The notes: generated by a model from the sequence alone, not told the origin. A DNA stretch of 49,984 bases from an uncultured Dehalococcoidaceae bacterium (GCA_964480145.1 CAYZOI010000003.1:1-49984), one strand, 5' to 3'; positions 4,892 to 31,927 are shown, counted from the first letter of the stretch. Numbers and translations are program-made.

Positions 4892-6160
4892 ATGCCAGGC
4901 ATTGATATCGGGGTAGACTTTTGCGGAATTCACCTATCAACTCCGTTTCTTATTGCCTCTGCGCCGTCTACCACAAGAATAGGCGAGATATACAAGCATG
5001 CCGAAAAGATAGCTGAGAACGGCTGGTCAGGTGTCGTAACAAAGACCGTCATCCATAAGGAAAAGTATGACCCGGAATTAAAGCCGCACCTGTGGACTAC
5101 ACCTCAGTTCAGGATAGTGGCCATGCAGAACGCCGGACCACAACTGGATATTTATAGTAAATCTTTGCTAAAAGATCTGAAGAGGGATACTGAAGCAGCC
5201 CACGCCGCAGGCATCAAGGTTATCGTTAGCATAATCGGCAGCACTTATGGCCAGTGGGGAGAGATGGCCAACGAGTGTGAGCAGGCCGGCGCCGACGGGA
5301 TAGAGCTGAATCTAAGCTGCCCATCCTACAGACCTACGATGCAGTCCTCTATGGGAGGGGCGCGGGTGGGTGGAGACCCGGAAGAAGCGGGCAGGGCGGT
5401 CGAAGCAACGGTTTCCGGCACGAATCTTCCAGTCATAGCCAAGTTGACGGCTCATGCTTCGGATATCTCCGCTGTAGCCACGGCATGCCAGGAGGCCGGT
5501 TGCGGCGCTATATCGGCCATCAACACAATGCGCGGGCTTATTGGCATTGATATTCAAACAGAAATGCCCCTGTCCAGTGATATAGAGGGGCGCTGTCATT
5601 ACTCGGGACTATCTGGCCCGCTAATCAAGCCTATTGCCCTGGGTATCTGCGCCAACCTGGCCCTATCGGTTGATGTTCCGATTAGCGCTATCGGTGGAAT
5701 AGTTGACTGGAGAGATACCGTCGAGTTCCTGCTGGCAGGTGCTTCCAATGTTCAGGTGGGCACCGGGATGATGTGGTACGGGTTTGGTCTGGGCACAAGG
5801 TTGCGCAGGGGACTGGAAAGCTATATGAAACAGAAGGGATACAGCTCAATACAAGACTTTAGGGGCCATGCCCTGAAGTATCTCGTGACTACCGAAAAAC
5901 AGGACTCCAGGGGCCATACGGTAAGATATATCTCCACCGCGGCAATACCGGAGGTATATCCAGCGGATTGTCACATGGAGCTTTCTCGGGAGAAGTGCAA
6001 TATGTGTCGGATGTGCCTTATTGCCTGCCGGGATGCTTCGATGGGTGCTATTGAGGAGGTAAACGGAAACCTGCGTATCAATCGCTCTAAATGTACCATT
6101 TGTGGACTATGTATGGTGGTATGCAAACCTGGAGCCATTATTTTACAAAGAAAAGTTTAA
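4892..6160 (+). CDS. dihydroorotate/dihydropyrimidine dehydrogenase-family flavoprotein with C-terminal 2x[4Fe-4S] ferredoxin domain (PreA-like)
   Basis: TIM-barrel motifs FLIASAP, MQNAGP, GADGIELNLSCP and AIGGI. The C-terminus has CNMCRMCLIAC and CTICGLCMVVCKP. RBS GAGGGG lies upstream of the ATG. Confidence 0.75.
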   Translation: MPGIDIGVDFCGIHLSTPFLIASAPSTTRIGEIYKHAEKIAENGWSGVVTKTVIHKEKYDPELKPHLWTTPQFRIVAMQNAGPQLDIYSKSLLKDLKRDTEAAHAAGIKVIVSIIGSTYGQWGEMANECEQAGADGIELNLSCPSYRPTMQSSMGGARVGGDPEEAGRAVEATVSGTNLPVIAKLTAHASDISAVATACQEAGCGAISAINTMRGLIGIDIQTEMPLSSDIEGRCHYSGLSGPLIKPIALGICANLALSVDVPISAIGGIVDWRDTVEFLLAGASNVQVGTGMMWYGFGLGTRLRRGLESYMKQKGYSSIQDFRGHALKYLVTTEKQDSRGHTVRYISTAAIPEVYPADCHMELSREKCNMCRMCLIACRDASMGAIEEVNGNLRINRSKCTICGLCMVVCKPGAIILQRKV

Positions 6161-6255: not shown

Positions 6256-7746
6256 ATGACAGAAGCAGTCAGGGGCCGATACGTATTAACCGGTGATATC
6301 CAGGGGAAGGTGATAGAGGATGGAGCTGTGGTATTTGATGGCGGAACCATCCTTGACCTGGGGCCGTTCAGCGAGATGCAGGCTATTTACAATCCGGTGA
6401 AGGTTTACGGTTCCCCCAACCATGTGGTTCTGCCCGGCCTGGTGAACTCGCATAGCCATGGACTCGGGGTAAACCTGCTCCGAGTAGGTCCCGGGGATGA
6501 ACCCTTAGAGCGCTGGTTTATCAACACCTGGTATCACCCGGATGGTAAAAGAGTGCCTATCTTTTATGAGAATACCCTTATCAATGGGCTGCAGATGCTC
6601 AAATCAGGGGTGACCACGGTGGTACACCATCATTATTTCAGCGAGGCCAATAGCGAAAACCATCTGGAGGTGATGAACCTCTGCTTGCAGGCTTACAAGG
6701 ACCTGGGAATGCGGGTGGCCTTTGCGCCTTTTATCAGAGACCGGCATCAATTTGCCTATCTGGATGACAGTGCCTTTATCTCAAGCCTTCCCGCCCATGC
6801 CGTTGACTCCTTAAGAGGGATAGGGAAAATCCCTGTTCGATATCCCACCGCGGCGCAGTATTTTCAGGCCTTTGACAAACTGAGGAGCCAGCATGAAGGT
6901 GACCAGACACGTTTCCTTTTTGGTCCAGCAGGCCCGCAATGGTGTACCCCGCAGCTCCTCAAAGAGATAAAGGAGCGCTCCGAACTGGAAGGTATCGGTA
7001 TCCATACCCATGTTCTGGAGAGTCCGATGCAGAGGAAGTATGGTGAGCGAGAGTATCCCGGCGGGCTTATCGGCTATCTGGAGGAATTGGGCTTGTTGAA
7101 CTCAAGGTTAACCCTGGTACACGGAGTTCAACTGACAAAGCAGGACATAAAAAAACTGGCACATGCTGGTTGCAAGGTAGCCCACAACCCCAGCAGCAAT
7201 CTGAGATTGTTTAACGGTGTGGCTCCCGTCAGAGAGATGCTTGAGGCAGGACTCGATGTAGGGCTGGGAATGGACAGCACCTCCCTGGATGATGATGAAG
7301 ATATGTTCCGGGAAATGAGGTTATGTTCGATATTGCAGCGCCCGCGGAAGATCGACGCCAGTCCAATCCCTAGTTCGCTTATACTGCATATGAACATAGC
7401 TAACGGAGCCAAAATAACCCAGTTTGAAGATGTCATCGGTCCTTTGGAGCGAGGAAAGAAGGCTGACTTAATACTGTTAGACTTCTTGAAAATAGAGGAG
7501 CCATTCATTGGCCCGGAGGCTGATGTGCTCTCTATCATCCTTCATCTAGCCACCAAAAGGCATGTTGATACTGTTTTTATCGACGGGTGTCCCGTTGTGG
7601 AGCAGGGCAAATCAAACCGGATCGACGAAGCGAAATTGCTGCAGGATATCAGGCAAAAGTATCAATTTAAGGGTGATGACCCTGAATCTAAAAAGCTGCG
7701 CCGGGCTATGACTGATGAGTTGATACGCCTTTACTCGGCGTGGTAA
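6256..7746 (+). CDS. amidohydrolase-superfamily protein (TRZ/ATZ-SsnA / aminohydrolase-chlorohydrolase-like branch)
   Basis: Metal-binding HxH in LPGLVNSHSHG. Later motifs are GIHTHVLES, LVHGV, AHNPSSN and GMDS. 496 aa, with a strong GGGGGGAG RBS. Confidence 0.7.
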   Translation: MTEAVRGRYVLTGDIQGKVIEDGAVVFDGGTILDLGPFSEMQAIYNPVKVYGSPNHVVLPGLVNSHSHGLGVNLLRVGPGDEPLERWFINTWYHPDGKRVPIFYENTLINGLQMLKSGVTTVVHHHYFSEANSENHLEVMNLCLQAYKDLGMRVAFAPFIRDRHQFAYLDDSAFISSLPAHAVDSLRGIGKIPVRYPTAAQYFQAFDKLRSQHEGDQTRFLFGPAGPQWCTPQLLKEIKERSELEGIGIHTHVLESPMQRKYGEREYPGGLIGYLEELGLLNSRLTLVHGVQLTKQDIKKLAHAGCKVAHNPSSNLRLFNGVAPVREMLEAGLDVGLGMDSTSLDDDEDMFREMRLCSILQRPRKIDASPIPSSLILHMNIANGAKITQFEDVIGPLERGKKADLILLDFLKIEEPFIGPEADVLSIILHLATKRHVDTVFIDGCPVVEQGKSNRIDEAKLLQDIRQKYQFKGDDPESKKLRRAMTDELIRLYSAW

Positions 7747-19763: not shown

Positions 19764-19793
19764 GCGGCGTGGTGCCATGCCACGCCGCTTTTT
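19764..19793 (+). terminator. rho-independent terminator after panB
   Basis: 9-bp GC-rich stem GCGGCGTGG / CCACGCCGC (19764-19772 and 19780-19788), 7-nt loop, then TTTTT (19789-19793). The T-run overlaps the stop codon of the convergent gene. Confidence 0.7.
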
Positions 19794-21609
19794 AATCGCC
19801 GAATGACAGGCAGCGCAGGAAGGTGTCCTCGAAATCCGGCCTCCCGGACAGCTCGATATGCCGTGCCGCGGAAGCAATCTTCTCCGCCTGGCGTCTTTCT
19901 TCGAGATTGAGCAGGGCTCGCAATGCCCCGTCCATGGCCCCGTTGCCGATGAAATGGATTTTCTCGAGCGGGAAAGGTGGAATCAGCCCCAGGGTGACCG
20001 CCTTTTCACGGTTGATATAGTTGCCGAACACGCCGGCAAGAAGTACCTCCTGGATATCATCGGCGCGGACGCCTGCTTCCTTCATAAGCAGTTCAACTCC
20101 GGCGCGTATGGCCCCCTTGGCGAGCTGCAATTCACGGACGTCCATCTGAGTCAGCGTAACCTCTCCTTTTTCATCTTTGAAGATGACGAATTCCCGCGTC
20201 TCCCCGCGAACCTTCACCATCTTCGCCAGCGCCCCGGCGCTTATCTCCGCCGGTTTGAGAATGCGTCCTTTCCGGTCGAGAACCCCCGCCCGGTAAAGCT
20301 CCGCCACCAGGTCAATCAGGCCGGAGCCGCAAATGCCCTTCGGGGCGCCGCCACCAATGACCGAGTAATTCATGGCCGGAGCTGCCTGAAAAGAACTGAT
20401 GGCGCCTTTTACGGCGCGCATGCCGTACTTTATCCGGCCACCTTCAAATGCGGGGCCGGCCGCCGTGGAGGCGGTCAGAACACCCTTTTCGGTCGCCAGC
20501 ATCACCTCACCGTTGGTGCCGATGTCAATGGCGAGCCTGGGAACACGGCTCTGGTGCAGCCCCGCCGCCAGGATTACCGCCACGGTGTCGGCACCGACAA
20601 AGCTGGCAATCGACGGCATGATATGCACCTTGCCCCCGGGGTGAATCTGCAAGCCGAGTTCTGCCGCCGACAAGTCGAACGACTGATTCAGCCCTCCGAC
20701 GTAAGGCGCCAGCGCTATATTTTTGGCCTCCAGTCCCAGCAGAGTGTGGAGCATGGTGGTATTGCCCACCACCGTGGCCTCGAAGATACGGCCCCGCTCC
20801 CGGCGGGAGTTCCGGCACAGCCGCAAAATCAGCTGATTGAGTCCCTTGACCAGTTCTTTTTGCAGGCTTTCCCTCTTTTCGGGAGCACCCTGCGCATGCA
20901 TGATTCGTGAAATAACATCGGCACCGAAGTTAATCTGAGGATTGAGTTCCGCATCAAGGGCGACCACCTTCCCCGTAGCCAGGTCCACCAGCGCTGCCGC
21001 CAGCGTGGTGGTGCCGATATCTATGGCCATGCCCAACACGTCACCGGCGGAACCGGGCGGGTCGAGCGCCACCACCTCATTCCCCACCACCAGCGCCTCC
21101 CCGCTAAAATTCCATTCCCTGAGGTTGTCAGACAGCTTTCGCAGCAAGGGCAACTCGATGCTCACCGGTCCGGCTGCTGGCTGCTCCAGATATTCGGCGA
21201 GGCGATTCCAGTCCGCCCGCTGGTCCTTTATCGAAGGCTTGCTCAGTTTGAAAGGAATGCTCCCGACATCGGATTGCAGGGAGATTTCCTCTCCAAGCAG
21301 TCCGAAGCTTGCCTTGGCCCGCGAAATCTCCATCTCGGGAAGGCGGACTTCACCGGGTTCCTCCACCATAACCTGACAGGCAAGATGCCAGCCCTCATCC
21401 AGTTCCTTCCGGGACAGCTTCTCCTGCTCCAGCTGCGTATATTTACGACTAATGCCGGAAAGCTGCACCTTGCATTTAAGACATGTGCCCTGCCCTCCGC
21501 AGGGTGAATCAAGGGGGATTCCAACCTCAATGAGCGCGGTGCGCAGGTTATCACCGGCCTTCAGTTTCAGTTCTCTGTCCGGAGGAATGACCCGAACGTT
21601 AACCTTCAT
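19792..21609 (-). CDS. reductive activator of corrinoid proteins (RACo-type; N-terminal [2Fe-2S] ferredoxin plus ASKHA ATPase/DUF4445)
   Basis: Plant-type ferredoxin motif SPCGGQGTCLKCKV at the N-terminus. The long ASKHA-like body has DIGTTT and DIGTNGE phosphate motifs. Confidence 0.85.
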   Translation of the reverse strand: MKVNVRVIPPDRELKLKAGDNLRTALIEVGIPLDSPCGGQGTCLKCKVQLSGISRKYTQLEQEKLSRKELDEGWHLACQVMVEEPGEVRLPEMEISRAKASFGLLGEEISLQSDVGSIPFKLSKPSIKDQRADWNRLAEYLEQPAAGPVSIELPLLRKLSDNLREWNFSGEALVVGNEVVALDPPGSAGDVLGMAIDIGTTTLAAALVDLATGKVVALDAELNPQINFGADVISRIMHAQGAPEKRESLQKELVKGLNQLILRLCRNSRRERGRIFEATVVGNTTMLHTLLGLEAKNIALAPYVGGLNQSFDLSAAELGLQIHPGGKVHIMPSIASFVGADTVAVILAAGLHQSRVPRLAIDIGTNGEVMLATEKGVLTASTAAGPAFEGGRIKYGMRAVKGAISSFQAAPAMNYSVIGGGAPKGICGSGLIDLVAELYRAGVLDRKGRILKPAEISAGALAKMVKVRGETREFVIFKDEKGEVTLTQMDVRELQLAKGAIRAGVELLMKEAGVRADDIQEVLLAGVFGNYINREKAVTLGLIPPFPLEKIHFIGNGAMDGALRALLNLEERRQAEKIASAARHIELSGRPDFEDTFLRCLSFGD

Positions 21610-22404
21610 CTATGACAGCTTCTCCTGCCGGTAGGCGGTGATGTACCCGGCGCAGAACTTGTCCCGGTCCAGAATCGCTTCCGCCGCCACCAGGCCGGCC
21701 ATAAGCTCACGATCGGTGGGGTCAATAATTGCCGAGTCGAGCCCCTGGGACATGGCCGCGACCAGAAAAGTGCGGTTAATCAGTTTCCGTACCGGCAGCC
21801 CGAAGGAGACATTGGTCAGCCCGCAGATGGTGTGCACTTCCGGCATCTGCGCGGTGATTTCCCTGATGGCACCGAGCGCGGCGACCGCTGATTGGGTATC
21901 GGTGGCGATGGGGTAAATGAGCGGGTCAATGAAAATATCTCCCGGTGCCACTCCTTCTTTGGTCAGAATATCGACCATCTTGCGGGCAACATCTACCTTT
22001 TCCTCAACGGTGCCGGCCATGCCGGCATCGCTCTGGCACAGCACGACGATTCTCGTCCCGTACTGTTTGATAAGCGGCAGCAGTCCATCCAAACGCTGTT
22101 TTTCCATCGTGATGGAATTTATCAGACACGGCTGTTTCACCAGCTTCAGAGCGGCGGCGATGGCCGCCGGGTCCGGACTGTCAAGGCAGAGCGGCAACTC
22201 CGTGGCCCCCTGTACGACCTCTACCAGCCAGCACAGGTACTCCGCTTCCTGCCCGACAAAGCTGCCGGCGTTTACATCGATGTACCGGGCACCGGCCTCG
22301 GTCTGAGATTTGGCCTCGTTGCGGATAAAATCGGCGTCTCTGGCTTTTACCGCCTCGCCGATTGACTTGCGCGACGAGTTAATTCTCTCGGCAACAATTA
22401 ACAT
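21610..22404 (-). CDS. methyltetrahydrofolate:corrinoid methyltransferase (pterin-binding, AcsE/MetH-module-like)
   Basis: ATG 22404 follows a GGAGGT RBS. MLIVAERINSSRKSI...ARYIDVNAG and LCLDSPD are typical of the pterin-binding barrel. The longer ORF-track start at 22497 has no RBS. Confidence 0.8.
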   Translation of the reverse strand: MLIVAERINSSRKSIGEAVKARDADFIRNEAKSQTEAGARYIDVNAGSFVGQEAEYLCWLVEVVQGATELPLCLDSPDPAAIAAALKLVKQPCLINSITMEKQRLDGLLPLIKQYGTRIVVLCQSDAGMAGTVEEKVDVARKMVDILTKEGVAPGDIFIDPLIYPIATDTQSAVAALGAIREITAQMPEVHTICGLTNVSFGLPVRKLINRTFLVAAMSQGLDSAIIDPTDRELMAGLVAAEAILDRDKFCAGYITAYRQEKLS

Positions 22405-22429
22405 AATATTACCTCCACAACCGATTGTT

Positions 22430-23629
22430 TTAATCGGGCAGCCTGTCCCGCCCGGCGATATCCCGGAGCAGATTGATGAAGTACTTGAAGTTCTCAAAGG
22501 GAACGTCCGGTGGAACGGCGTGGTCCAGACCGGGGAAGAAACCGCCCGTCTCGCAGAGATACGGCACCTTGCGCATTACCTCTTCCTTCAAAGCCTCTTT
22601 CCCCTTGATAAAAGACCGTTTGTCAATATGCCCGCCCAGAATGAGTTCCTTGCCGTACTTCTTTCTCAGGGCAACGCCGTCCATGCCGGCCGCCACCTCA
22701 ATCGGCCAGGGGAAATTGACCCCGACCTCTTTGAGCCAGATGGGTATCAGCTCGTCGATATTGCCATCGCTGTCCAGGTGGATAATGTCGATTCCCTGGC
22801 TGTGCAGGAAGTCGGTGATTACCTTGTAGCGCGGTACCATGAACTTACTGAACATGGCCGGGGAAATGAGAGGGCCGGCCTTGTAGGCCATGTCCTCCCA
22901 GAAGCGGACAAAGTCAACCCGCAGGTCCTTCAAAGCCCCCTTGGCCACCTCCATGACCAGATAGAGCACCTGGTCCATCATGTCCTCGACCAGCTGCGGG
23001 TCATCATAGAACATGTAAAGCAGTCGCTCGAGACCACACCACTCTCGCAGTATGCCGAAGAAGCCGGAAAAGAGCAGGAGCACCGGCGTATCTTCGCTGT
23101 TATGCTGTTTGACATAGGCATCCCAGTCCTTCGGCCAGCGCTCCGGGGTGTGGGGGTCAAGCCGTTTCTTGTACTCATTCCAGGAAGCCCTGTCCTTAAC
23201 CGGATGGTCCAAATAATGGGGCATACGTAAAGGGTGTTCCTTGTTGACCTCCACCGTCTGCCCGCCAAAGGCGATTTCAACCCGGTGTCTCTCGTCCTCG
23301 CTGATGACTTTCCGGTCAAAGACGGGCACCACCGGCGGCGTGATGAGGTAATGCCCCGGGCCCTGCTGGGAGGGGTCAGCTTTGAGGTCGGCGCGGTTTA
23401 CGCCGCACACAATCTCCTGGGTGCTGTGAATACGGTCGAGCTGGAAATAGTCACGGTTACCGTCTGCGGTCAGGATTTCCTTTGGTGCGCCCTGCTTGAC
23501 CCAGACTTCCGGTGTCTCCGACCAGTACTTGTTGAACCAGTCGAAAATCGGGACATCTCCCGGCCTCTTGCCGAGGCACAGGTCGCGAAACCGCTCCCGA
23601 TTTGGCATCGGAACACCCGTATCTTTCAT
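22430..23629 (-). CDS. URO-D-family methyltransferase (MtaA/MtbA/O-demethylase MT-like), paralog 1
   Basis: 399-aa protein of the uroporphyrinogen-decarboxylase-like superfamily (HLDSDGNIDELIP..., GGHID...). ATG 23629 lies 8 nt after an AAGGAG RBS. Confidence 0.7.
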   Translation of the reverse strand: MKDTGVPMPNRERFRDLCLGKRPGDVPIFDWFNKYWSETPEVWVKQGAPKEILTADGNRDYFQLDRIHSTQEIVCGVNRADLKADPSQQGPGHYLITPPVVPVFDRKVISEDERHRVEIAFGGQTVEVNKEHPLRMPHYLDHPVKDRASWNEYKKRLDPHTPERWPKDWDAYVKQHNSEDTPVLLLFSGFFGILREWCGLERLLYMFYDDPQLVEDMMDQVLYLVMEVAKGALKDLRVDFVRFWEDMAYKAGPLISPAMFSKFMVPRYKVITDFLHSQGIDIIHLDSDGNIDELIPIWLKEVGVNFPWPIEVAAGMDGVALRKKYGKELILGGHIDKRSFIKGKEALKEEVMRKVPYLCETGGFFPGLDHAVPPDVPFENFKYFINLLRDIAGRDRLPD

Positions 23630-23683
23630 CAGTGCCACTCCTTTTTAGTACGCTGGTCAGGCGGTAACTACTTCGTTTTCCAG

Positions 23684-23701
23684 TATAGTATCTTTACTAT
23701 A
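23684..23701. promoter_or_regulatory. perfect 7-4-7 palindrome TATAGTA-TCTT-TACTATA in the gap upstream of URO-D paralog 1
   Basis: Seen directly. On the minus strand it overlaps a possible TTGTGC-18-TATACT promoter. Candidate operator or internal promoter. Confidence 0.3.
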
Positions 23702-23764
23702 GGTTGCACAAACTCCCGGCCAGCTCCGCGATGTAGCGGGGCTTTCCTGCCAGCTCGAAAGGAT

Positions 23765-24322
23765 TTACTTGTCGCTCAGGCCCATCGACTGAGCATTCGG
23801 GCAGATGTTCTTGGCGCTGCAGTGAATGCAGACCACTTTGGTGAAGAGGACAAAGAATCGGAAAAGAAGCAATCCCAGCAAAGCGATGAATATGGCCAGT
23901 ATTACTGGCGAAAAATTGATAATCAGTGCCGGTATCATGGCAATAATAGGGATTGCCAGGGAAGCGATGTACATATTATTGTGGCAGAACAATCCCTGAC
24001 CTCGTTTGGAGAAGTCGTTTATATCCCCTTTTCTGGTGATTTTCGCGGAAATAACATTCAGGCCGGATACGCAGACGGCGTTTTTCATCCCGTAGTACAC
24101 ACAGTTCGGACAGACGGTCAGCGGCATGACCAGATACATTTCCACAAAAGCGAAAACAAGATACAGCGCGCCAAACAGATACGCAAGCCAGGATGGGCCG
24201 TAGCCGAGCATGATGCCAGCCCCACCGAGCAGGAAATGGAGAACGGTGACGCCATTGTAGAGAGCAATGTGTGATACCGGATATCTGGTATATACCTTTG
24301 TTTTTGTGTCCGCGTCAGGCAT
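23765..24322 (-). CDS. Cys-rich integral membrane protein (about 4 TM segments), unknown family
   Basis: 185 aa with four long hydrophobic stretches. Cys motifs are VCPNCVYYG...AVCVSG between helices and VVCIHCSAKNICPN at the C-terminus. Starts 8 nt after the aminotransferase stop. Confidence 0.6.
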   Translation of the reverse strand: MPDADTKTKVYTRYPVSHIALYNGVTVLHFLLGGAGIMLGYGPSWLAYLFGALYLVFAFVEMYLVMPLTVCPNCVYYGMKNAVCVSGLNVISAKITRKGDINDFSKRGQGLFCHNNMYIASLAIPIIAMIPALIINFSPVILAIFIALLGLLLFRFFVLFTKVVCIHCSAKNICPNAQSMGLSDK

Positions 24323-24330
24323 TTCTCCGC

Positions 24331-25698
24331 CTAGAGAAATTCCTTCTCAAAATCGGTGAGGGCGGCGTCAAGCAGGTCAAAGGCTTCGTCTATTACCGGT
24401 TCGGTGATGATAAAGGGGGGCGAGACCAGCAGGGCATCTCCGCTCACACCGTCCTTGATGCCAATGGTAGGGTAGCCCATGACCCCGTGCTTCATGGCGA
24501 TATTCTGCAGGCAGTTCGATGCCCGCCGCTTCATATCAAAGGGCTCTCTTTTTTCTTTATCCTGCACCAGCTCAATACCCATGAGCAGGCCTTTGCCCCG
24601 TATATCCCCCACCACCGGGTGATGGGCCAGCTTTTCCCTCCCCTTCCGGAAAAAGTACTCGCCGAGCCGGGCACAGCGTTCCACCAGTCCTTCTTCCTCC
24701 AGGACATCGAGAACCGCCAGGCAGGTGGCTGCCGAGACGGGGTTGCCCTCCATGGTAAAGCCGTGCAGGAAGCCAGCGCCTGTCTCCGAGAACACCTTCC
24801 CGACCTTTTCATCGATAATTACCACGGCCATCGGCGTATAGCCTCCCGTCATCCCTTTGGCCGAGGTGATGATATCGGGATTGACGCCCCAGTGATTAAT
24901 ACCAAACCACTTGCCCGTCCGGCCAAAGCCGCAGATGACCTCATCATCGATGAGCAGCACTTCGTACTTATCGCAAATCTCACGGATTATGGGATAATAT
25001 TCCGGAACCGGCACCATGCAGGCGGTCCCGGCGCCGCCCACTGCCTCCATAAAGAAGGCGGACACATACTGCGCGCCGACCTGATTGATAATCTCCTCAA
25101 GCGCCCTGGCGCATCTGATACCGCAGCCGGGATAGGTGAGCCCGTAGGCGCAGTGGTAGCATAGCGGGGCCGGTATCTTTGGCCACTGGTGCAGCATCGG
25201 CTCGAATTTTTGTCGTCTCATGGTGTGCCCGGAAACGGAAAGCGCGCCCAGCGTCATGCCGTGATAGCTCTGCCAGCGGGAGAGCGCCATGTACTTCTCC
25301 GGCTTGCCCCTCTCCACGTGATACTGGCGGGCAATCTTTATCGCCGTCTCGTTGGCCTCGGAACCGCTGTTGCAGAACTGGCACATCTTCAAGTTGGGTG
25401 GGGCGACCTTTATAATCCGCTCCGCCAGCTCCAGTAACGGCTCGTTCAGCCAGAAGGCGCGAAAGAAGAAAGACACTTTATCAATCTGGTTTTTCATCGC
25501 CTCCTTTACCCTCGCATTGGCATGCCCGAGGGAGACGACGTGAGGCCCGCCGCTGAAGTCGATGTATTTCCGGTTATTCTGGTCATACAAGTACACGCCA
25601 TCGCCGCGCTCGCAGATGACGTCCGGCGGAACGGTTCCGTGCAATGTCCCGAACATGTGTTTGTCCCGCTTCTGGGCTGCTTCCAATCGGTCTACCAT
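24331..25698 (-). CDS. class III (omega-type) pyridoxal-phosphate aminotransferase
   Basis: NSGSEANETAIK, LLIDDEVICGFGRTGKWFG and the PLP lysine in ITSAKGMTGGY. 455 aa. Confidence 0.85.
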   Translation of the reverse strand: MVDRLEAAQKRDKHMFGTLHGTVPPDVICERGDGVYLYDQNNRKYIDFSGGPHVVSLGHANARVKEAMKNQIDKVSFFFRAFWLNEPLLELAERIIKVAPPNLKMCQFCNSGSEANETAIKIARQYHVERGKPEKYMALSRWQSYHGMTLGALSVSGHTMRRQKFEPMLHQWPKIPAPLCYHCAYGLTYPGCGIRCARALEEIINQVGAQYVSAFFMEAVGGAGTACMVPVPEYYPIIREICDKYEVLLIDDEVICGFGRTGKWFGINHWGVNPDIITSAKGMTGGYTPMAVVIIDEKVGKVFSETGAGFLHGFTMEGNPVSAATCLAVLDVLEEEGLVERCARLGEYFFRKGREKLAHHPVVGDIRGKGLLMGIELVQDKEKREPFDMKRRASNCLQNIAMKHGVMGYPTIGIKDGVSGDALLVSPPFIITEPVIDEAFDLLDAALTDFEKEFL

Positions 25699-25727
25699 AT
25701 ACTCCCCCTTCTCTGTACCTGGGGCAA

Positions 25728-26897
25728 TTATTCCCCGAAGGCCACTTTATACAGCTCTATTATCTCTTCCCTGGTTGCCTGACGCGGGTTATTCGCCGGG
25801 CTGCCGCTGGCAATAGCATCCTCGCTCATTTTCGGCGCCAGCTGTTCGAGCTTTTCCTTGCCCACGCCAAGTTCCCGCATTGACGGTATCCTGACATCTT
25901 TGATGAGCTTCTTGACCGCCTCGGCCCCGCGCTGCGCCGCTTCCAGTTCGGACAGGCCGCTGGCCTTAACGCCCATTGCCCCGGCGATGCGTGCATAGCG
26001 CGCCGGGTTCCCCTCGAGGCTGAATTCCATCACCGCACCGAGGAGGGCGGCATTGGAAGCGCCGTGACGCACGTGGAAATAGGCGCCGATAGGCCGCGCC
26101 ATGCCGTGCACCAGCGCTACCGAAGAATTGCTGAACGCCATCCCCGCCATGAGCGAGCCCATCATGGTCTTTTCTCTCGCCTCCAGGTTTTTCCCGTCCG
26201 ACCACGCCTGCTCCAGGTTGCCGGCGATAAGCTCGATAGCGGCCAGAGCGAGAACATCGCTCATCGGCTGGGCTTTAACCGAAACGTAGGCTTCGATAGC
26301 GTGTGTCAGCGCATCGATGCCGGTGGCGGCGGTAACATCGGGCGGCAATAGCACGGTAAGCTGCGGGTCGACGATAGCTATCTCGGGCATGAGGAAAGGA
26401 CTGCCGATAAGCATTTTAACGTCCCGCCGGGTATCGGTGATGATGGTGAACGGCGTTACCTCGCTGCCGGTGCCGGCCGTGGTGGGCACGGCGATGACCG
26501 GCCTGCCTTTCTCCAGCACCTTGCCCAGCCCCACGTAGTTCTCGATTGAACCCTGGTTGGTGGCCATGACCGATATGGCCTTGGCGGTGTCCATCGGGCT
26601 GCCTCCACCGATGGCAAGAAGGCAATCGCATTTGTTTTCCCGAAACGCCTCCAGCCCTTCCTGAACATGCTCGACGACTGGTTCCGTATTGACGCCGCCA
26701 TATACGGCGTAGGCAACGCCGCTCTTCCGCAGCGATGCCAGGGCGCCATCGACAATGCCCAGCTTGACCTGGTTCTGGTCAGTAACAATCAGGGCCTTCT
26801 TCAAATTCAGCTTTTTTAACTCTTCGCCAACTTGCTTTGAAGACCCGGACCCGGTGATAACGACCTGCGGGACTCGAAACGTCTTTACTGGCAGCAT
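25728..26897 (-). CDS. iron-containing (group III) alcohol dehydrogenase
   Basis: GGGSPMDTAKAI, PTTAGTGSE and the His-rich metal site (THAIEAY, HG..H). Confidence 0.85.
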   Translation of the reverse strand: MLPVKTFRVPQVVITGSGSSKQVGEELKKLNLKKALIVTDQNQVKLGIVDGALASLRKSGVAYAVYGGVNTEPVVEHVQEGLEAFRENKCDCLLAIGGGSPMDTAKAISVMATNQGSIENYVGLGKVLEKGRPVIAVPTTAGTGSEVTPFTIITDTRRDVKMLIGSPFLMPEIAIVDPQLTVLLPPDVTAATGIDALTHAIEAYVSVKAQPMSDVLALAAIELIAGNLEQAWSDGKNLEAREKTMMGSLMAGMAFSNSSVALVHGMARPIGAYFHVRHGASNAALLGAVMEFSLEGNPARYARIAGAMGVKASGLSELEAAQRGAEAVKKLIKDVRIPSMRELGVGKEKLEQLAPKMSEDAIASGSPANNPRQATREEIIELYKVAFGE

Positions 26898-27096
26898 GTA
26901 GACCTCCCGAATTGAGCCTTATACTAAATGATTCTTTTTTCGGCGGAAAAGACGGCTAACGGCATAAGTCTATTATATTCAACTTTTTGCGTCAATCAAT
27001 ATTGGGAACGGGCGGCTCCAGCGGTTTGACAAACTTGGGCTTCATCGCTACGATAATGCCATACTCTACAAACGGTCGCGAAACCCCGGCTTTTCG

Positions 27097-27125: not shown

Positions 27126-27148
27126 TTATTAAAGGAGGCGTGAAAAAG

Positions 27149-28147
27149 ATGGCCAAGGAAACTCATGAACTTTCAATGACCCCGGAATACCTGAAAAGAA
27201 TCGAGCAAATCATTACCGCAGGCGGGCGAAGTTCGCTTTACGGCCCGGAAGATGCGCGCGCCGCTATGACGCAGCCGAACTTTGACAACGAACGCATGTG
27301 GGGCCTGCTGCGCGGCTCTTACGATATCCACCAGCACACCGGCCCTTCATCCACCACCCAGCGCCTTTTCAGCCAGATTGAGTTCGCCCGCCAGGCCTGC
27401 GAGTTGGGGCAGGCGGGCATTGTCTGCAAGGACCATACCCTACCGACGGCTCCCTCTGTGCAGCTCACCCAGATAGTCGTGGATGAATGGGCGGAGGCAC
27501 ACAACAAGAAAAGGACGGAAGTCTTTGGCGGCGTGGTACTCAACTATGCCGTTGGCGGACTGAACCCCGATGCGGTCGTGGCCAGCTACCGGGTGGGGGG
27601 CAAATACATCTGGCTGCCCAACATGGACGCCGCCCATCACCGCAGCGTGACCCGCCACCCCAAAGGCGGGGGTATTTCCGTCATCGATGATAAAGGGGAC
27701 GTGGTGCCGGAGATGAAGGAAATCCTGAAACTGATGGCGGAAACAGACATGGTGCTCGGCCTGTGCCATCAGAGCACGGCGGAGCGCTTCGCCATGGTCA
27801 GGGAAGCAGTGAAAATGGGCGTGGAACGCATTGAAATCAGCCACGTCAATTACCCGCTGACGATGGTGACGCCGGAGCAGGCCAAGGAACTGGCCGACAT
27901 GGGCGCCTATATCGGCATCTATGCCATGCACATGTCGCCGCCGGCTTTCGTCTGGGATGAGGCGATGGCCTTCTACAAGGCGGTCGGCCCGGAGAGAATC
28001 GTTCTCGGCTCCGATACCGGTCATATTGAGACCGGCCTCCCCTGGGAGCAGATGAGAAAGCTGATTCTCGGCTTTCTGTTCCGCGGTGTACCTGATGAAC
28101 ACGTCAAAATGATGTGCCAGACCAACGCGCACAGTCTGCTGCATTGA
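27149..28147 (+). CDS. metal-dependent TIM-barrel hydrolase-like protein (amidohydrolase-related, uncharacterised family)
   Basis: HxH motif in YDIHQHTGPS. Later conserved His/Asp positions are CKDH, AAHH, CHQS, ISHVNY and GSDTGH. ATG 27149 lies 10 nt after an AGGAGG RBS. Confidence 0.55.
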   Translation: MAKETHELSMTPEYLKRIEQIITAGGRSSLYGPEDARAAMTQPNFDNERMWGLLRGSYDIHQHTGPSSTTQRLFSQIEFARQACELGQAGIVCKDHTLPTAPSVQLTQIVVDEWAEAHNKKRTEVFGGVVLNYAVGGLNPDAVVASYRVGGKYIWLPNMDAAHHRSVTRHPKGGGISVIDDKGDVVPEMKEILKLMAETDMVLGLCHQSTAERFAMVREAVKMGVERIEISHVNYPLTMVTPEQAKELADMGAYIGIYAMHMSPPAFVWDEAMAFYKAVGPERIVLGSDTGHIETGLPWEQMRKLILGFLFRGVPDEHVKMMCQTNAHSLLH

Positions 28148-28175
28148 TATAAATAATAAGTGGAGGTGGGGCACG

Positions 28176-29084
28176 ATGGCGACACAACAGGATAATTTAC
28201 TGTTTCGGGAGAAACCGGAGTTAAGACAGCCGTACCTGCTCTGCGGTATAAATGGCTGGGTGGATGGCGGGGAGGCGGCCACCGGCACTGTCCAGTACCT
28301 GATTAAGAAACTGCGTGCCAAGAAGTTCGCGGAAATGCCCATTGCCCGTTACCACGTCTACCAGATGCCGGGGCAGCTAGCCCTCAGACCCCAGATTAAG
28401 ATTGAGAACGGCCTGCTGAAAAAACACGTCCTGCCGCAGAACGAGTTCTTTTACTGGGTCAACACGAACTCAGACCACGACCTGATTCTGTATCTGGGCA
28501 CAGAGCCCAACACCAACTGGGAAGAATATACGGAGAACATACTGGACCTCGCCAGGGACTTCAATGTCAGCCGAATATACGTGCCGGGCGGCGTTCTGGA
28601 CAAAACGCCTCACACCAGGGAGGCCGGCGTATTCTGCGCCTGCAGCTCCAGAGAACTGCGGCAGGAGATGATGAGGTACGCCATGCAGTCGAGCAACTAC
28701 GAGGGGCCGGGCAGCTTCAGCATCACCATGCTCCATATGTCACAGAAGAGGAAAATGCCCTTCGTGAGCATTATCGCCCGGTCCACCTACTACCCCGAAT
28801 TCAACGTCGTCATCCCGCGCAACCCGAAGGCAATAAAGGCGATTGTCCTCCGGCTGAACAGCCTGCTCCATCTTGACCTGGACATCTCCGACCTCGACCA
28901 GGAGGCCAGTGAACTGGAGGTAAAGCTCAACTTCATGGCGAGCCATAACCAGGAATTCCAGGCATATATCGAGGATCTGGAGAAGGAATACGTCGAGGTT
29001 AAATACGAGGCGCCGCTCGACATCACCGCGAATGAAGCAGTACTGCTGGCCGAGGAATTTCTGAAGGAGACGAGGGACGAATAA
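28176..29084 (+). CDS. PAC2-family (proteasome-assembly-chaperone-2-like) protein
   Basis: PYLLCGINGWVDGGEAATGTVQYLIKKL and the later YEGPGSFSITMLHM resemble the bacterial PAC2 family. 302 aa. Confidence 0.55.
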   Translation: MATQQDNLLFREKPELRQPYLLCGINGWVDGGEAATGTVQYLIKKLRAKKFAEMPIARYHVYQMPGQLALRPQIKIENGLLKKHVLPQNEFFYWVNTNSDHDLILYLGTEPNTNWEEYTENILDLARDFNVSRIYVPGGVLDKTPHTREAGVFCACSSRELRQEMMRYAMQSSNYEGPGSFSITMLHMSQKRKMPFVSIIARSTYYPEFNVVIPRNPKAIKAIVLRLNSLLHLDLDISDLDQEASELEVKLNFMASHNQEFQAYIEDLEKEYVEVKYEAPLDITANEAVLLAEEFLKETRDE

Positions 29085-29101: not shown

Positions 29102-30136
29102 CTAGTAGCCCTCTTCGGCGGCGGCAATTATCGCCTTCAGGTTTTCCAGCGGGGTCTGCAGCGATATGGCACACTCCGGCCCGATGGAGTCAACGCCCGC
29201 CTCGATATTGTACCTGGCCTGCCGATAGACATCCTCCGGCGTGCCCTGCAGCAGGGCCTGGATATTGCTGATGCCCCCCAGCAGTGATACCTGCCCCCCC
29301 GCCGCTTCAACCGCCTTTTCCGGGTCATTCTGCCACTCGAAGTGGTAGCCGTCATAGCCCTCGGTAGCGATGTGCGGAATACGGTCGAGGCATGGGCCAC
29401 AGACATGGAGAATGGTGGGGCCGCCGATATACGCCAGCATCTTCCGGTGCACCGGCACCAGGAAATCGGCATAGGTCTGAGCGCTGACCATGGCGCCGGT
29501 GGCATGGTCGGGAAGCACCACGGCGTCGGCACCGGCACGGAGCTGGGCGTTGGCGACGGCAATCGTCACCGGCATATACGCTTCCAGGTAGGCCCTCACC
29601 TGGTCGGGGTCAAGCCGCACCAGGATGAGAAAGTCCTCCACGCCGACCGTATGGTAGCAGATGGTCCACGGGCCCATCACCTTGCCCAGAATAGCCACGC
29701 GGTCGCCGTACTCGCGGCGCAGCCGCGATATAGCGTCAAGCACCACCTTTATGGAAGGTTTTTCCAGCAGGTTATCCGGGATTACAACATCCCCGGGGCT
29801 CTTCGCCGGGTGCGTCATCGTTTCCGGCATCATGGTATCGCTGCCCCAGTTAACGTCACAGCCGAGGGCGGCGGCCTCCTGCTGAACGCTGAACTCCGGC
29901 ATGATGGTATCAAAGCCCAGGACCTCATAGCCGGCAGCGGCCAGTTCCGCCATAGCGCTGGCATCGGTATGGGCATCGGGGAAATGGACGCCAACCTTGT
30001 TTATCAGTTCCACGCAGGCGATTGAGGTGGGGTTGGATACGGAAATGCGCTTGCCCCGGCGACCGCCCATAAGGTTGGCCAGGAAACGCCGCCTCGGGGT
30101 AAGGTCAGTCTTTTCTCCCTTGTTCTCAACGGTCAT
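29102..30136 (-). CDS. URO-D-family methyltransferase (MtaA-like), paralog 2
   Basis: MtaA-like sequence (LMGGRRGKRISVSNPT..., ILHVCG, IGPECAI). ATG 30136 lies 8 nt after AGGAG. An alternative GTG at 30145 would overlap the upstream stop (GTGA). Confidence 0.75.
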   Translation of the reverse strand: MTVENKGEKTDLTPRRRFLANLMGGRRGKRISVSNPTSIACVELINKVGVHFPDAHTDASAMAELAAAGYEVLGFDTIMPEFSVQQEAAALGCDVNWGSDTMMPETMTHPAKSPGDVVIPDNLLEKPSIKVVLDAISRLRREYGDRVAILGKVMGPWTICYHTVGVEDFLILVRLDPDQVRAYLEAYMPVTIAVANAQLRAGADAVVLPDHATGAMVSAQTYADFLVPVHRKMLAYIGGPTILHVCGPCLDRIPHIATEGYDGYHFEWQNDPEKAVEAAGGQVSLLGGISNIQALLQGTPEDVYRQARYNIEAGVDSIGPECAISLQTPLENLKAIIAAAEEGY

Positions 30137-30141
30137 ATTGC

Positions 30142-31269
30142 TCACTCCTGGACTTCAACTGGCAGCCTGCCATACCGCTCAATCAGCTCGACGACCCGGC
30201 CGACACGGTTGATATCGCCGTCAAAGGGCAGGTTATCCCCCATCCCCACGATGAACCGGTACCCCGGGGCCATCTCCCGGAACATGTTCTTTATAAAGGC
30301 GTCAAAGTCCTCGTCGCTATACATCGGCTCGAACAGTATCGACGGTATCCCTCCCCAGATGGTAACCTCGTCGCCCAGCGTTTCCCGAAACTCCCTCATG
30401 CTGACCAGGGTCTGCGGGGCGGGGGTAATGGCTTCGGCGACGTCAATGCCGGTCTCACGGAACATCGGGTTCAGGCGCCGCATTTCGCCGTCGGTGTGCG
30501 CCATGACGAGGCGACCGTGGGAATGAAGGAATTCGCTTACCTCCTGAAACCAGGGAACGAGATACTTCCGGAACACCGGCGTCTGAATATCATCGCTCCA
30601 GTTGGCGCAGACATTGAAGATTTCCAGGTCGCACCCTATCGCCACCTTCAGCTTTCTTCTCTCCAGGTCTTTTACCGCTTCAATCAATTCCTCCACCCTC
30701 GCCGGGCGGTCGGCCAGCTCGTAGAAGAACAGCTCATAGCCTATGATTTCGCGCATGACGCGCTGCACCGGCGACCAGAGCCCGCCGGAGGCGGTCATCA
30801 CCATGCCGTCCTCCCCAACCTCCTCGCGTAATTTTTGATACGGCTCAAAGTTATCCGCCGCCTCGGTGTGCTCCATGACATACTTGAGCACCGGGTAGTC
30901 TTTCTCGCTCTTGAAGAGCTTTTCCATCTCATACTTGATCCAGGGCCCTTCGGAAGTGTCAAAGAGCTCCTTCTTGGCTACGGCGCCGACGGGCGTATGG
31001 TACTCGGTGGTGATATAGGGCGGGTCGTTTGTTTCCACCACTTCCATATCGCGGTATTTTTCCTTGGTTACGGAAAAGAAGCGTGCCTGAGCGCCGGCGC
31101 CCTGGTCGCGCAGAATATCCGTCTGGCTCCAGCCCTGGTATTTATCAGGGAGGGTGCCGTGGGCGGAGTGGTAGTTATACCAGACGTCAATGCGCGCTCC
31201 GAAAGGCAGCCTGTCCAGCTTTTCGCCCCGCGCCGCCGCCAGTATCTGCTGTTTTTTTGTCACGGCCAT
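30142..31269 (-). CDS. URO-D-family methyltransferase, paralog 3
   Basis: ATG 31269 (MAVTKKQQILAAARGEKLDRLPF). The body is URO-D-like (MAHTDGEM..., IWGGIP). The ORF-track start at 31359 would overlap the upstream corrinoid-protein gene. Confidence 0.7.
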   Translation of the reverse strand: MAVTKKQQILAAARGEKLDRLPFGARIDVWYNYHSAHGTLPDKYQGWSQTDILRDQGAGAQARFFSVTKEKYRDMEVVETNDPPYITTEYHTPVGAVAKKELFDTSEGPWIKYEMEKLFKSEKDYPVLKYVMEHTEAADNFEPYQKLREEVGEDGMVMTASGGLWSPVQRVMREIIGYELFFYELADRPARVEELIEAVKDLERRKLKVAIGCDLEIFNVCANWSDDIQTPVFRKYLVPWFQEVSEFLHSHGRLVMAHTDGEMRRLNPMFRETGIDVAEAITPAPQTLVSMREFRETLGDEVTIWGGIPSILFEPMYSDEDFDAFIKNMFREMAPGYRFIVGMGDNLPFDGDINRVGRVVELIERYGRLPVEVQE

Positions 31270-31291
31270 CTTGTCTGTGCCTTTGAAAATA

Positions 31292-31927
31292 CTATTTCCC
31301 GACCAGCTCTCGACACACCGGCACCGCCCGGCCGCCGTCATGGGCGTAGCCATCGGCACCGATGTAGTCGGCGTAGTCCTGCGTCACCGGCGCCCCGCCG
31401 ACGACCACCTTGACGCTGGAACGCAGCCCCACCTCCTCCAGTGCCTTGATGACCTTGCCCATCAACGGCATGGTGGTGGTCAGCAGTGCCGACATCCCCA
31501 GGATATCGGGCTTTTTCTCTTTTACCTCGTCAATGAATTTCTGGGCCGGCACGTTAAGCCCGAGGTCAAAGACCTCGAAGCCGTTGCCGCTGAGAAAGGT
31601 GGCGACCACGTTCTTGCCGATGTCATGCATGTCGCCCTCAACGGTGCCGATGACCACCTTGCCGATGGTCGGAATGCCGGTCTCCTTGAGGGCCGGCGCG
31701 AGTACCTCAAGGGCGGCTTTCATCGCCCGTGCTGCCATGAGCATATCTGGGAGAAAATATTCCCCGCTGGAAAATTTTTCTCCCACTGCGGCCATGCCCG
31801 CCTGCAATCCCTGTGTAACGACGTCCTGCGGGTTATCGCCGGCATCAAGCGCCTTCTGGGTCAACTCTACGGTCTTTTCGCGGTCACCCTGGTCAATCGC
31901 CTGTGCCAAAAGAGACATATCAGCCAT
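31292..31927 (-). CDS. corrinoid (cobalamin-binding) methyl-carrier protein, MtaC/MtbC-like
   Basis: B12-binding DxHxxG motif in VEGDMHDIGKNVV, followed by DLG and SALLTTTM. N-terminal helical cap. 211 aa. AAGGAG RBS. Confidence 0.9.
   Translation of the reverse strand: MADMSLLAQAIDQGDREKTVELTQKALDAGDNPQDVVTQGLQAGMAAVGEKFSSGEYFLPDMLMAARAMKAALEVLAPALKETGIPTIGKVVIGTVEGDMHDIGKNVVATFLSGNGFEVFDLGLNVPAQKFIDEVKEKKPDILGMSALLTTTMPLMGKVIKALEEVGLRSSVKVVVGGAPVTQDYADYIGADGYAHDGGRAVPVCRELVGK

Follow-up and report, generated by a model that had tools for sequence, protein, structure and literature searches.

In the window (the whole 49,984-nt stretch of DNA analysed here, from an uncultured Dehalococcoidaceae bacterium), genes for corrinoid-dependent methyl transfer lie directly downstream of genes for an alcohol dehydrogenase and an aminotransferase, which raises the question of whether the two sets of genes serve one pathway. 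A sequence-only reading had described six co-directional minus-strand genes between positions 19792 and 26897, and the ORFs and the gaps between them match that description exactly. All six are real and conserved, each having many close homologues in Dehalococcoidia metagenomes. The first encodes an Fe-dependent (group III) alcohol dehydrogenase (Fe-ADH, 389 aa, 25728-26897; Pfam/NCBIfam, Fe-ADH 1e-57) and is followed after 29 nt by a class-III aminotransferase (AT) of the omega-amine:pyruvate type (455 aa, 24331-25698; Aminotran_3 6e-94). After a further 8 nt comes a membrane protein of 185 aa with seven cysteines and about four hydrophobic spans (23765-24322). A gap of 135 nt then precedes the gene for a divergent URO-D/MtaA-fold protein of 399 aa (MT1, true ATG at 23629, stop at 22430), a putative substrate:corrinoid methyltransferase (MT-I). 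MT1 is separated by 25 nt from MT-II, a pterin-binding methyl-corrinoid:tetrahydrofolate (THF) methyltransferase (264 aa, 21610-22404; Pterin_bind PF00809 1.6e-25; NF005719, 328 bits against a cutoff of 259). With a gap of 0 nt, MT-II adjoins the gene for a RACo-type ATP-dependent reductive activase of corrinoid proteins (605 aa, 19792-21609), in which Pfam/NCBIfam models matched all four domains (Fer2, RACo_linker, Raco_middle and RACo_C_ter) and the N-terminal [2Fe-2S] ferredoxin domain carries Cys37/43/46/78. Judged by sequence, the family assignments of Fe-ADH, class-III AT, MT-II and RACo can be regarded as firm, and the latter two are bona fide components of a corrinoid methyl-transfer system.

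Transcription units

A sigma-70-like promoter on the minus strand (TTGATT-16-TATAAT, 26972-26999, 10 of 12 consensus matches) precedes the ADH start by about 75 nt, next to a divergent plus-strand promoter for a DUF6282 gene (27026-27054). Another promoter-like element was found on the minus strand in the 135-nt gap before MT1 (23682-23711), consisting of TTGTGC (23706-23711), 18 nt and TATACT (23682-23687). Across 14 loci with differing flanking genes, its TTGT and TA.TATACT do not vary. Since such an invariant element stands before the methyl-transfer unit, the six genes are likely to form two transcription units, and the two can be regulated separately. The element would thus split the supposed single operon into an ADH-AT unit and a methyl-transfer unit, and the locus is probably not one fixed six-gene operon. 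Two loci (L102 and L104; locus numbers refer to relatives throughout) lack the element and have AT ending 16 nt before MT-II, implying a single operon in that lineage.

The same gap had been reported to hold a perfect 7-4-7 palindrome. The palindrome, TATAGTAaagaTACTATA at 23684-23701, is present exactly, but its left arm is not conserved and its right arm is the -10 box of the promoter-like element, so that it is a chance overlap with this box. No terminator-like hairpin was found in the gap. Also located there, on the minus strand and in frame, is a remnant of the C-terminus of an ADP-ribosylglycohydrolase-family (ARH) gene (RYIAELAGSLCNL*, 23700-23738); relatives carry an ARH gene here, which this genome no longer has. 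The membrane protein has conserved CPNC and CxHCx5CP motifs and belongs to a family without assigned function, restricted to Chloroflexota/Dehalococcoidia. It is an accessory insert at the locus: it is decayed in the closest relatives, and members of its family also occur in unrelated contexts.

Linkage of the aminotransferase to MT-II and RACo

AT adjoins MT-II-RACo in eight of ten informative species-level genome loci and in all 15 metagenome loci, the latter counted if AT was at least 76% identical and enough downstream sequence was available. The genes between AT and this core vary (ADH, malonate-semialdehyde dehydrogenase together with a 144-aa protein, membrane protein, ARH, MT1). Of the ADH-AT-membrane protein-methyltransferase arrangement, the AT link is conserved but the intervening genes are not; the attachment of the ADH/AT module to methyl-transfer genes does persist in relatives. 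Aminotransferases of 69-75% identity are divergent neighbours of non-pyrrolysine (non-Pyl) MtmB-corrinoid protein(-MtmB) genes in six loci, and one of 59% identity (L139) adjoins genes for a corrinoid protein and a URO-D-like protein. Occurrence of AT paralogues beside other corrinoid methyltransferase pairs favours the earlier suggestion that AT handles a demethylated amine. No N-methylamine methyltransferase (MttB or MtmB homologue) is encoded in the window. The metagenome-assembled genome GCA_011192105.1 contains both a locus of the same type (type A, L001) and a corrinoid protein-MtmB pair without MT-II/RACo (L159).

We tentatively prefer, at somewhat below even confidence, a model in which MT-II-RACo is a shared hub and AT and ADH process the primary amine left after N-demethylation. 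The model is built on gene context in uncultured organisms. Shared use of the core is suggested by the genome GCA_011192105.1, with its MtmB pair apart from MT-II/RACo, and by MT1 paralogues that follow corrinoid-protein genes but likewise lack MT-II/RACo. Disposal of the primary amine would be the most likely role of the ADH-AT module because its link to the core survives rearrangements and because AT paralogues lie beside MtmB-corrinoid protein pairs.

The main alternative, which we consider rather unlikely, is that the two units are merely neighbours by descent, ADH-AT being an independent omega-amino-acid module whose place beside the methyl-transfer operon is a stable feature of the chromosome. 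Such a module might serve catabolism (beta-alanine, taurine or GABA type) or run in reverse, supplying beta-alanine for the adjacent panB (pantothenate). Common descent accounts for the synteny of most type-A loci, in which the unrelated flanking PanB, PAC2 and DUF6282 genes are conserved to the same degree; however many the loci, the number of independent juxtapositions is therefore only about three (types A, B and C). The DUF6282 (amidohydrolase-2-like) and PAC2 genes (27140-29084, plus strand, divergent from ADH) are syntenic in all relatives, and we found no evidence for a role. The separate conserved promoter-like element likewise fits independent units, as do two loci (L008 and L017) that keep MT1-MT-II-RACo without an adjacent AT. 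Moreover, AT together with a reductase or malonate-semialdehyde dehydrogenase (MSDH) is a self-sufficient known module, and AT relatives occur in TRAP/PTE/SDR/AOR operons without methyltransferases; those in L110, L121 and L140 accompany TRAP transporters, with no methyltransferase genes. On the other hand, the link has persisted while at least five different intervening genes were lost or gained, the AT-MT-II junction has tightened in L102 and L104, AT paralogues stand independently beside MtmB-corrinoid protein and corrinoid protein-URO-D-like genes, and a Pyd pathway is not recognisable here.

Identity of the ADH-AT module

Neither ADH nor AT could be assigned at the equivalog level. ADH matches best, though only partially and below the cutoffs, choline dehydrogenase GbsB and lactaldehyde reductase (383 bits); its best matches in the PDB are 1,3-propanediol and methanol dehydrogenases. 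Among solved structures, those closest to AT are omega-transaminases, including putrescine, polyamine and GABA transaminases. In relatives, ADH is replaced or joined by a malonate-semialdehyde-type dehydrogenase, which passes TIGR01722 (537 bits against a cutoff of 448; L001, L014, L015 and L029). ADH with AT is not an unknown combination: an aminotransferase paired with malonic semialdehyde reductase or dehydrogenase is known from the beta-alanine end of the Pyd pathway (PMC7332683). The CoA-acylating (methyl)malonate-semialdehyde dehydrogenase of relatives therefore indicates that the carbon skeleton of the substrate may be of the beta-alanine type. No PydA, PydB or PydC is encoded alongside ADH-AT. 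A PreA-like gene (4892-6160; 275 bits against a cutoff of 335) and a TRZ/ATZ-type deaminase gene (6256-7746), for which an assignment as dihydropyrimidinase was ruled out, both lie in a lower-GC region at a distance of about 17 kb.

The URO-D-like protein and the corrinoid protein

The last three genes of the locus had been interpreted as parts of a demethylase; family models bear this out for MT-II and RACo, and the URO-D-like MT-I is a putative part. MT1 gives a weak URO-D match (1.6e-12, residues 177-392 only) and, against solved structures, no sequence match except weak ones to UroD. Its predicted structure has the URO-D/MtaA fold (pLDDT 81; TM of about 0.6 to UroD and to MtaA 4ay7). MT1 is not a member of the MtaA/CmuA family (NF040654, 33.5 bits against a cutoff of 400; no TIGR01463 match at E ≤ 1e-5) and is without the HxC...C zinc site of that family, H284-L-D286 and D369-H370 being at the aligned positions. 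Its sequence and Foldseek matches included no solved O-demethylase MT-I structure (OdmB, VdmB, MtvB, MtoB group). The methyltransferase label of this putative MT-I comes entirely from gene context. MT1 is an optional member of the locus: it is absent from eight of the 15 metagenome loci that retain AT-MT-II-RACo and fragmentary in L091.

The corrinoid carrier had been expected to come from 31292-31927. This gene (minus strand) indeed encodes a corrinoid protein with B12-binding_2 and B12-binding domains and the DMHDIG motif, but it lies 7.7 kb upstream, apart from MT1-MT-II-RACo, at the head of a separate conserved operon with other methyltransferase genes. These encode, also on the minus strand, a second divergent URO-D-fold protein (MT1b, 375 aa as called, 30142-31269), 26% identical to MT1 over 171 residues, and an MtaA/CmuA-family methyltransferase (347 aa, 29102-30145) that passes TIGR01463 and retains the HxC...C zinc motif.

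These data bear on the original proposal of one six-gene operon, in which MT1 would serve as an MT-I dedicated to an amine or amino-alcohol with O-, S- or N-linked methyl groups, the protein at 31292-31927 its corrinoid partner, and ADH and AT would process the same molecule. Consistent with it are the co-directional genes with short gaps, the 135-nt gap free of terminator-like hairpins, and the full form ADH-AT-MEM-ARH-MT1-MT-II-RACo (MEM, membrane protein) in L105. In addition, MT1 is 74-76% identical to translationally coupled paralogues encoded 10-14 nt downstream of corrinoid-protein genes, without MT-II/RACo. We nevertheless consider the proposal improbable, given that MT1 is so often missing beside AT-MT-II-RACo, that the copies at the syntenic position are not monophyletic, that the promoter-like element separates the units, and that the nearest corrinoid protein has two URO-D-family genes in its own operon. 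Furthermore, distant members of the MT1 family are tightly paired with ARH-domain genes in several phyla, among glycosidase genes, and are found neither near a corrinoid protein nor with aminotransferases.

A biosynthetic direction, in which MT-II/RACo would pass methyl groups from methyl-THF via a corrinoid protein to an acceptor such as a core-MetE-type methionine synthase or a thiol methylase and the aminotransferase genes would be unrelated, agrees with the use of methylcobalamin by Dehalococcoidia core-MetE, for which a corrinoid protein has been proposed as donor (PMC7005905), and with the MtaA-like zinc methyltransferase encoded 6 kb away, but is very improbable. Many MT-I paralogues of the substrate type (URO-D-like, MtmB-like) are coupled to corrinoid proteins, which favours methyl harvesting; an MTHFR gene divergent from MT1 in L017 is consistent with methyl-THF oxidation or assimilation; and the locus lacks a core-MetE gene.

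Comparison with known systems

The locus would follow the same four-part logic as O-demethylase systems (MtvABC of Moorella, Odm/Vdm of Acetobacterium dehalogenans, Dhaf, archaeal MtoABCD), namely a substrate-specific MT-I of the URO-D superfamily, a corrinoid protein, a methyl-corrinoid:THF MT-II and an ATP-dependent activase (PMC8630106; PMC10418091). It differs from them in that MT1 is optional, has no sequence match to solved structures except weak ones to UroD and matches MtaA at only 33 bits, in that the corrinoid protein is outside the MT1 operon, and in the attached aminotransferase/ADH module, which is not described for those systems. In MtgBCA (glycine betaine) and MtqBCA (tetramethylammonium/choline), corrinoid N-demethylation by non-pyrrolysine MttB/MtmB homologues feeds a C1 carrier. 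The non-Pyl MtmB-corrinoid protein pairs of relatives, including the one in a genome with the same locus type, are similar, whereas this window has no such homologue. MtqB is the only non-Pyl MtmB with demonstrated function (PMC13044021); for the homologues in Dehalococcoidia, a demethylase function and its coupling to an aminotransferase are putative.

The alternation of ADH in the window with the TIGR01722 dehydrogenase, with or without ADH, in relatives corresponds to the beta-alanine branch of Pyd, in which the class-III aminotransferase PydD is paired with either PydE, an aldehyde (malonic semialdehyde) reductase, or MSDH, a CoA-acylating semialdehyde dehydrogenase. Unlike that branch, the module here is attached to MT-II/RACo, with no PydABC alongside. 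Type 1 mlp clusters (MtaA-like proteins, corrinoid protein and RACE; Kountz & Balskus preprint) resemble 29102-31927, where an anaerobe that lacks coenzyme M likewise encodes a corrinoid protein together with MtaA-like and URO-D-family proteins; here, however, a second operon, at a distance of 6 kb, encodes MT-II (THF methylase) and the activase.

A proposed methyl-transfer network

According to the shared-hub model, the locus would be the hub of a corrinoid-dependent methyl-transfer network in an uncultured marine member of the Dehalococcoidia. Its constant core, MT-II and RACo, would be expressed from its own conserved promoter, preceded in this genome by one optional URO-D-fold MT-I, and would be used by corrinoid proteins and further MT-I (URO-D-like paralogues, non-pyrrolysine MtmB homologues) encoded elsewhere. 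The upstream ADH-AT(-membrane protein) unit would act as an omega-amine to aldehyde to alcohol module, disposing of the primary amine once a methylated amine has been fully N-demethylated; the aldehyde would be reduced by Fe-ADH or, in relatives, oxidised instead or as well by the CoA-acylating (methyl)malonate-semialdehyde dehydrogenase. The pairing of the URO-D-like family with ARH-domain genes among glycosidases suggests that this family could be a new kind of demethylase, for glycosylated or ribosylated methylated compounds.

The AT/ADH-core link, kept through many rearrangements in relatives, suggests that methylated amines are processed by an anaerobic route not described so far. It is conceivable, if unlikely, that marine-sediment Dehalococcoidia possess a pathway in which N-methylated omega-amino compounds, with beta-alanine betaine, N-methyl-beta-alanine and N-methyltaurine-type osmolytes as candidates, are stripped of all methyl groups by non-pyrrolysine MtmB homologues and/or a new URO-D-fold methyltransferase family. 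The methyl groups would pass via corrinoid proteins to THF through the MT-II/RACo hub, and the remaining primary amine would be fermented by the co-located AT and ADH (or malonate-semialdehyde dehydrogenase).

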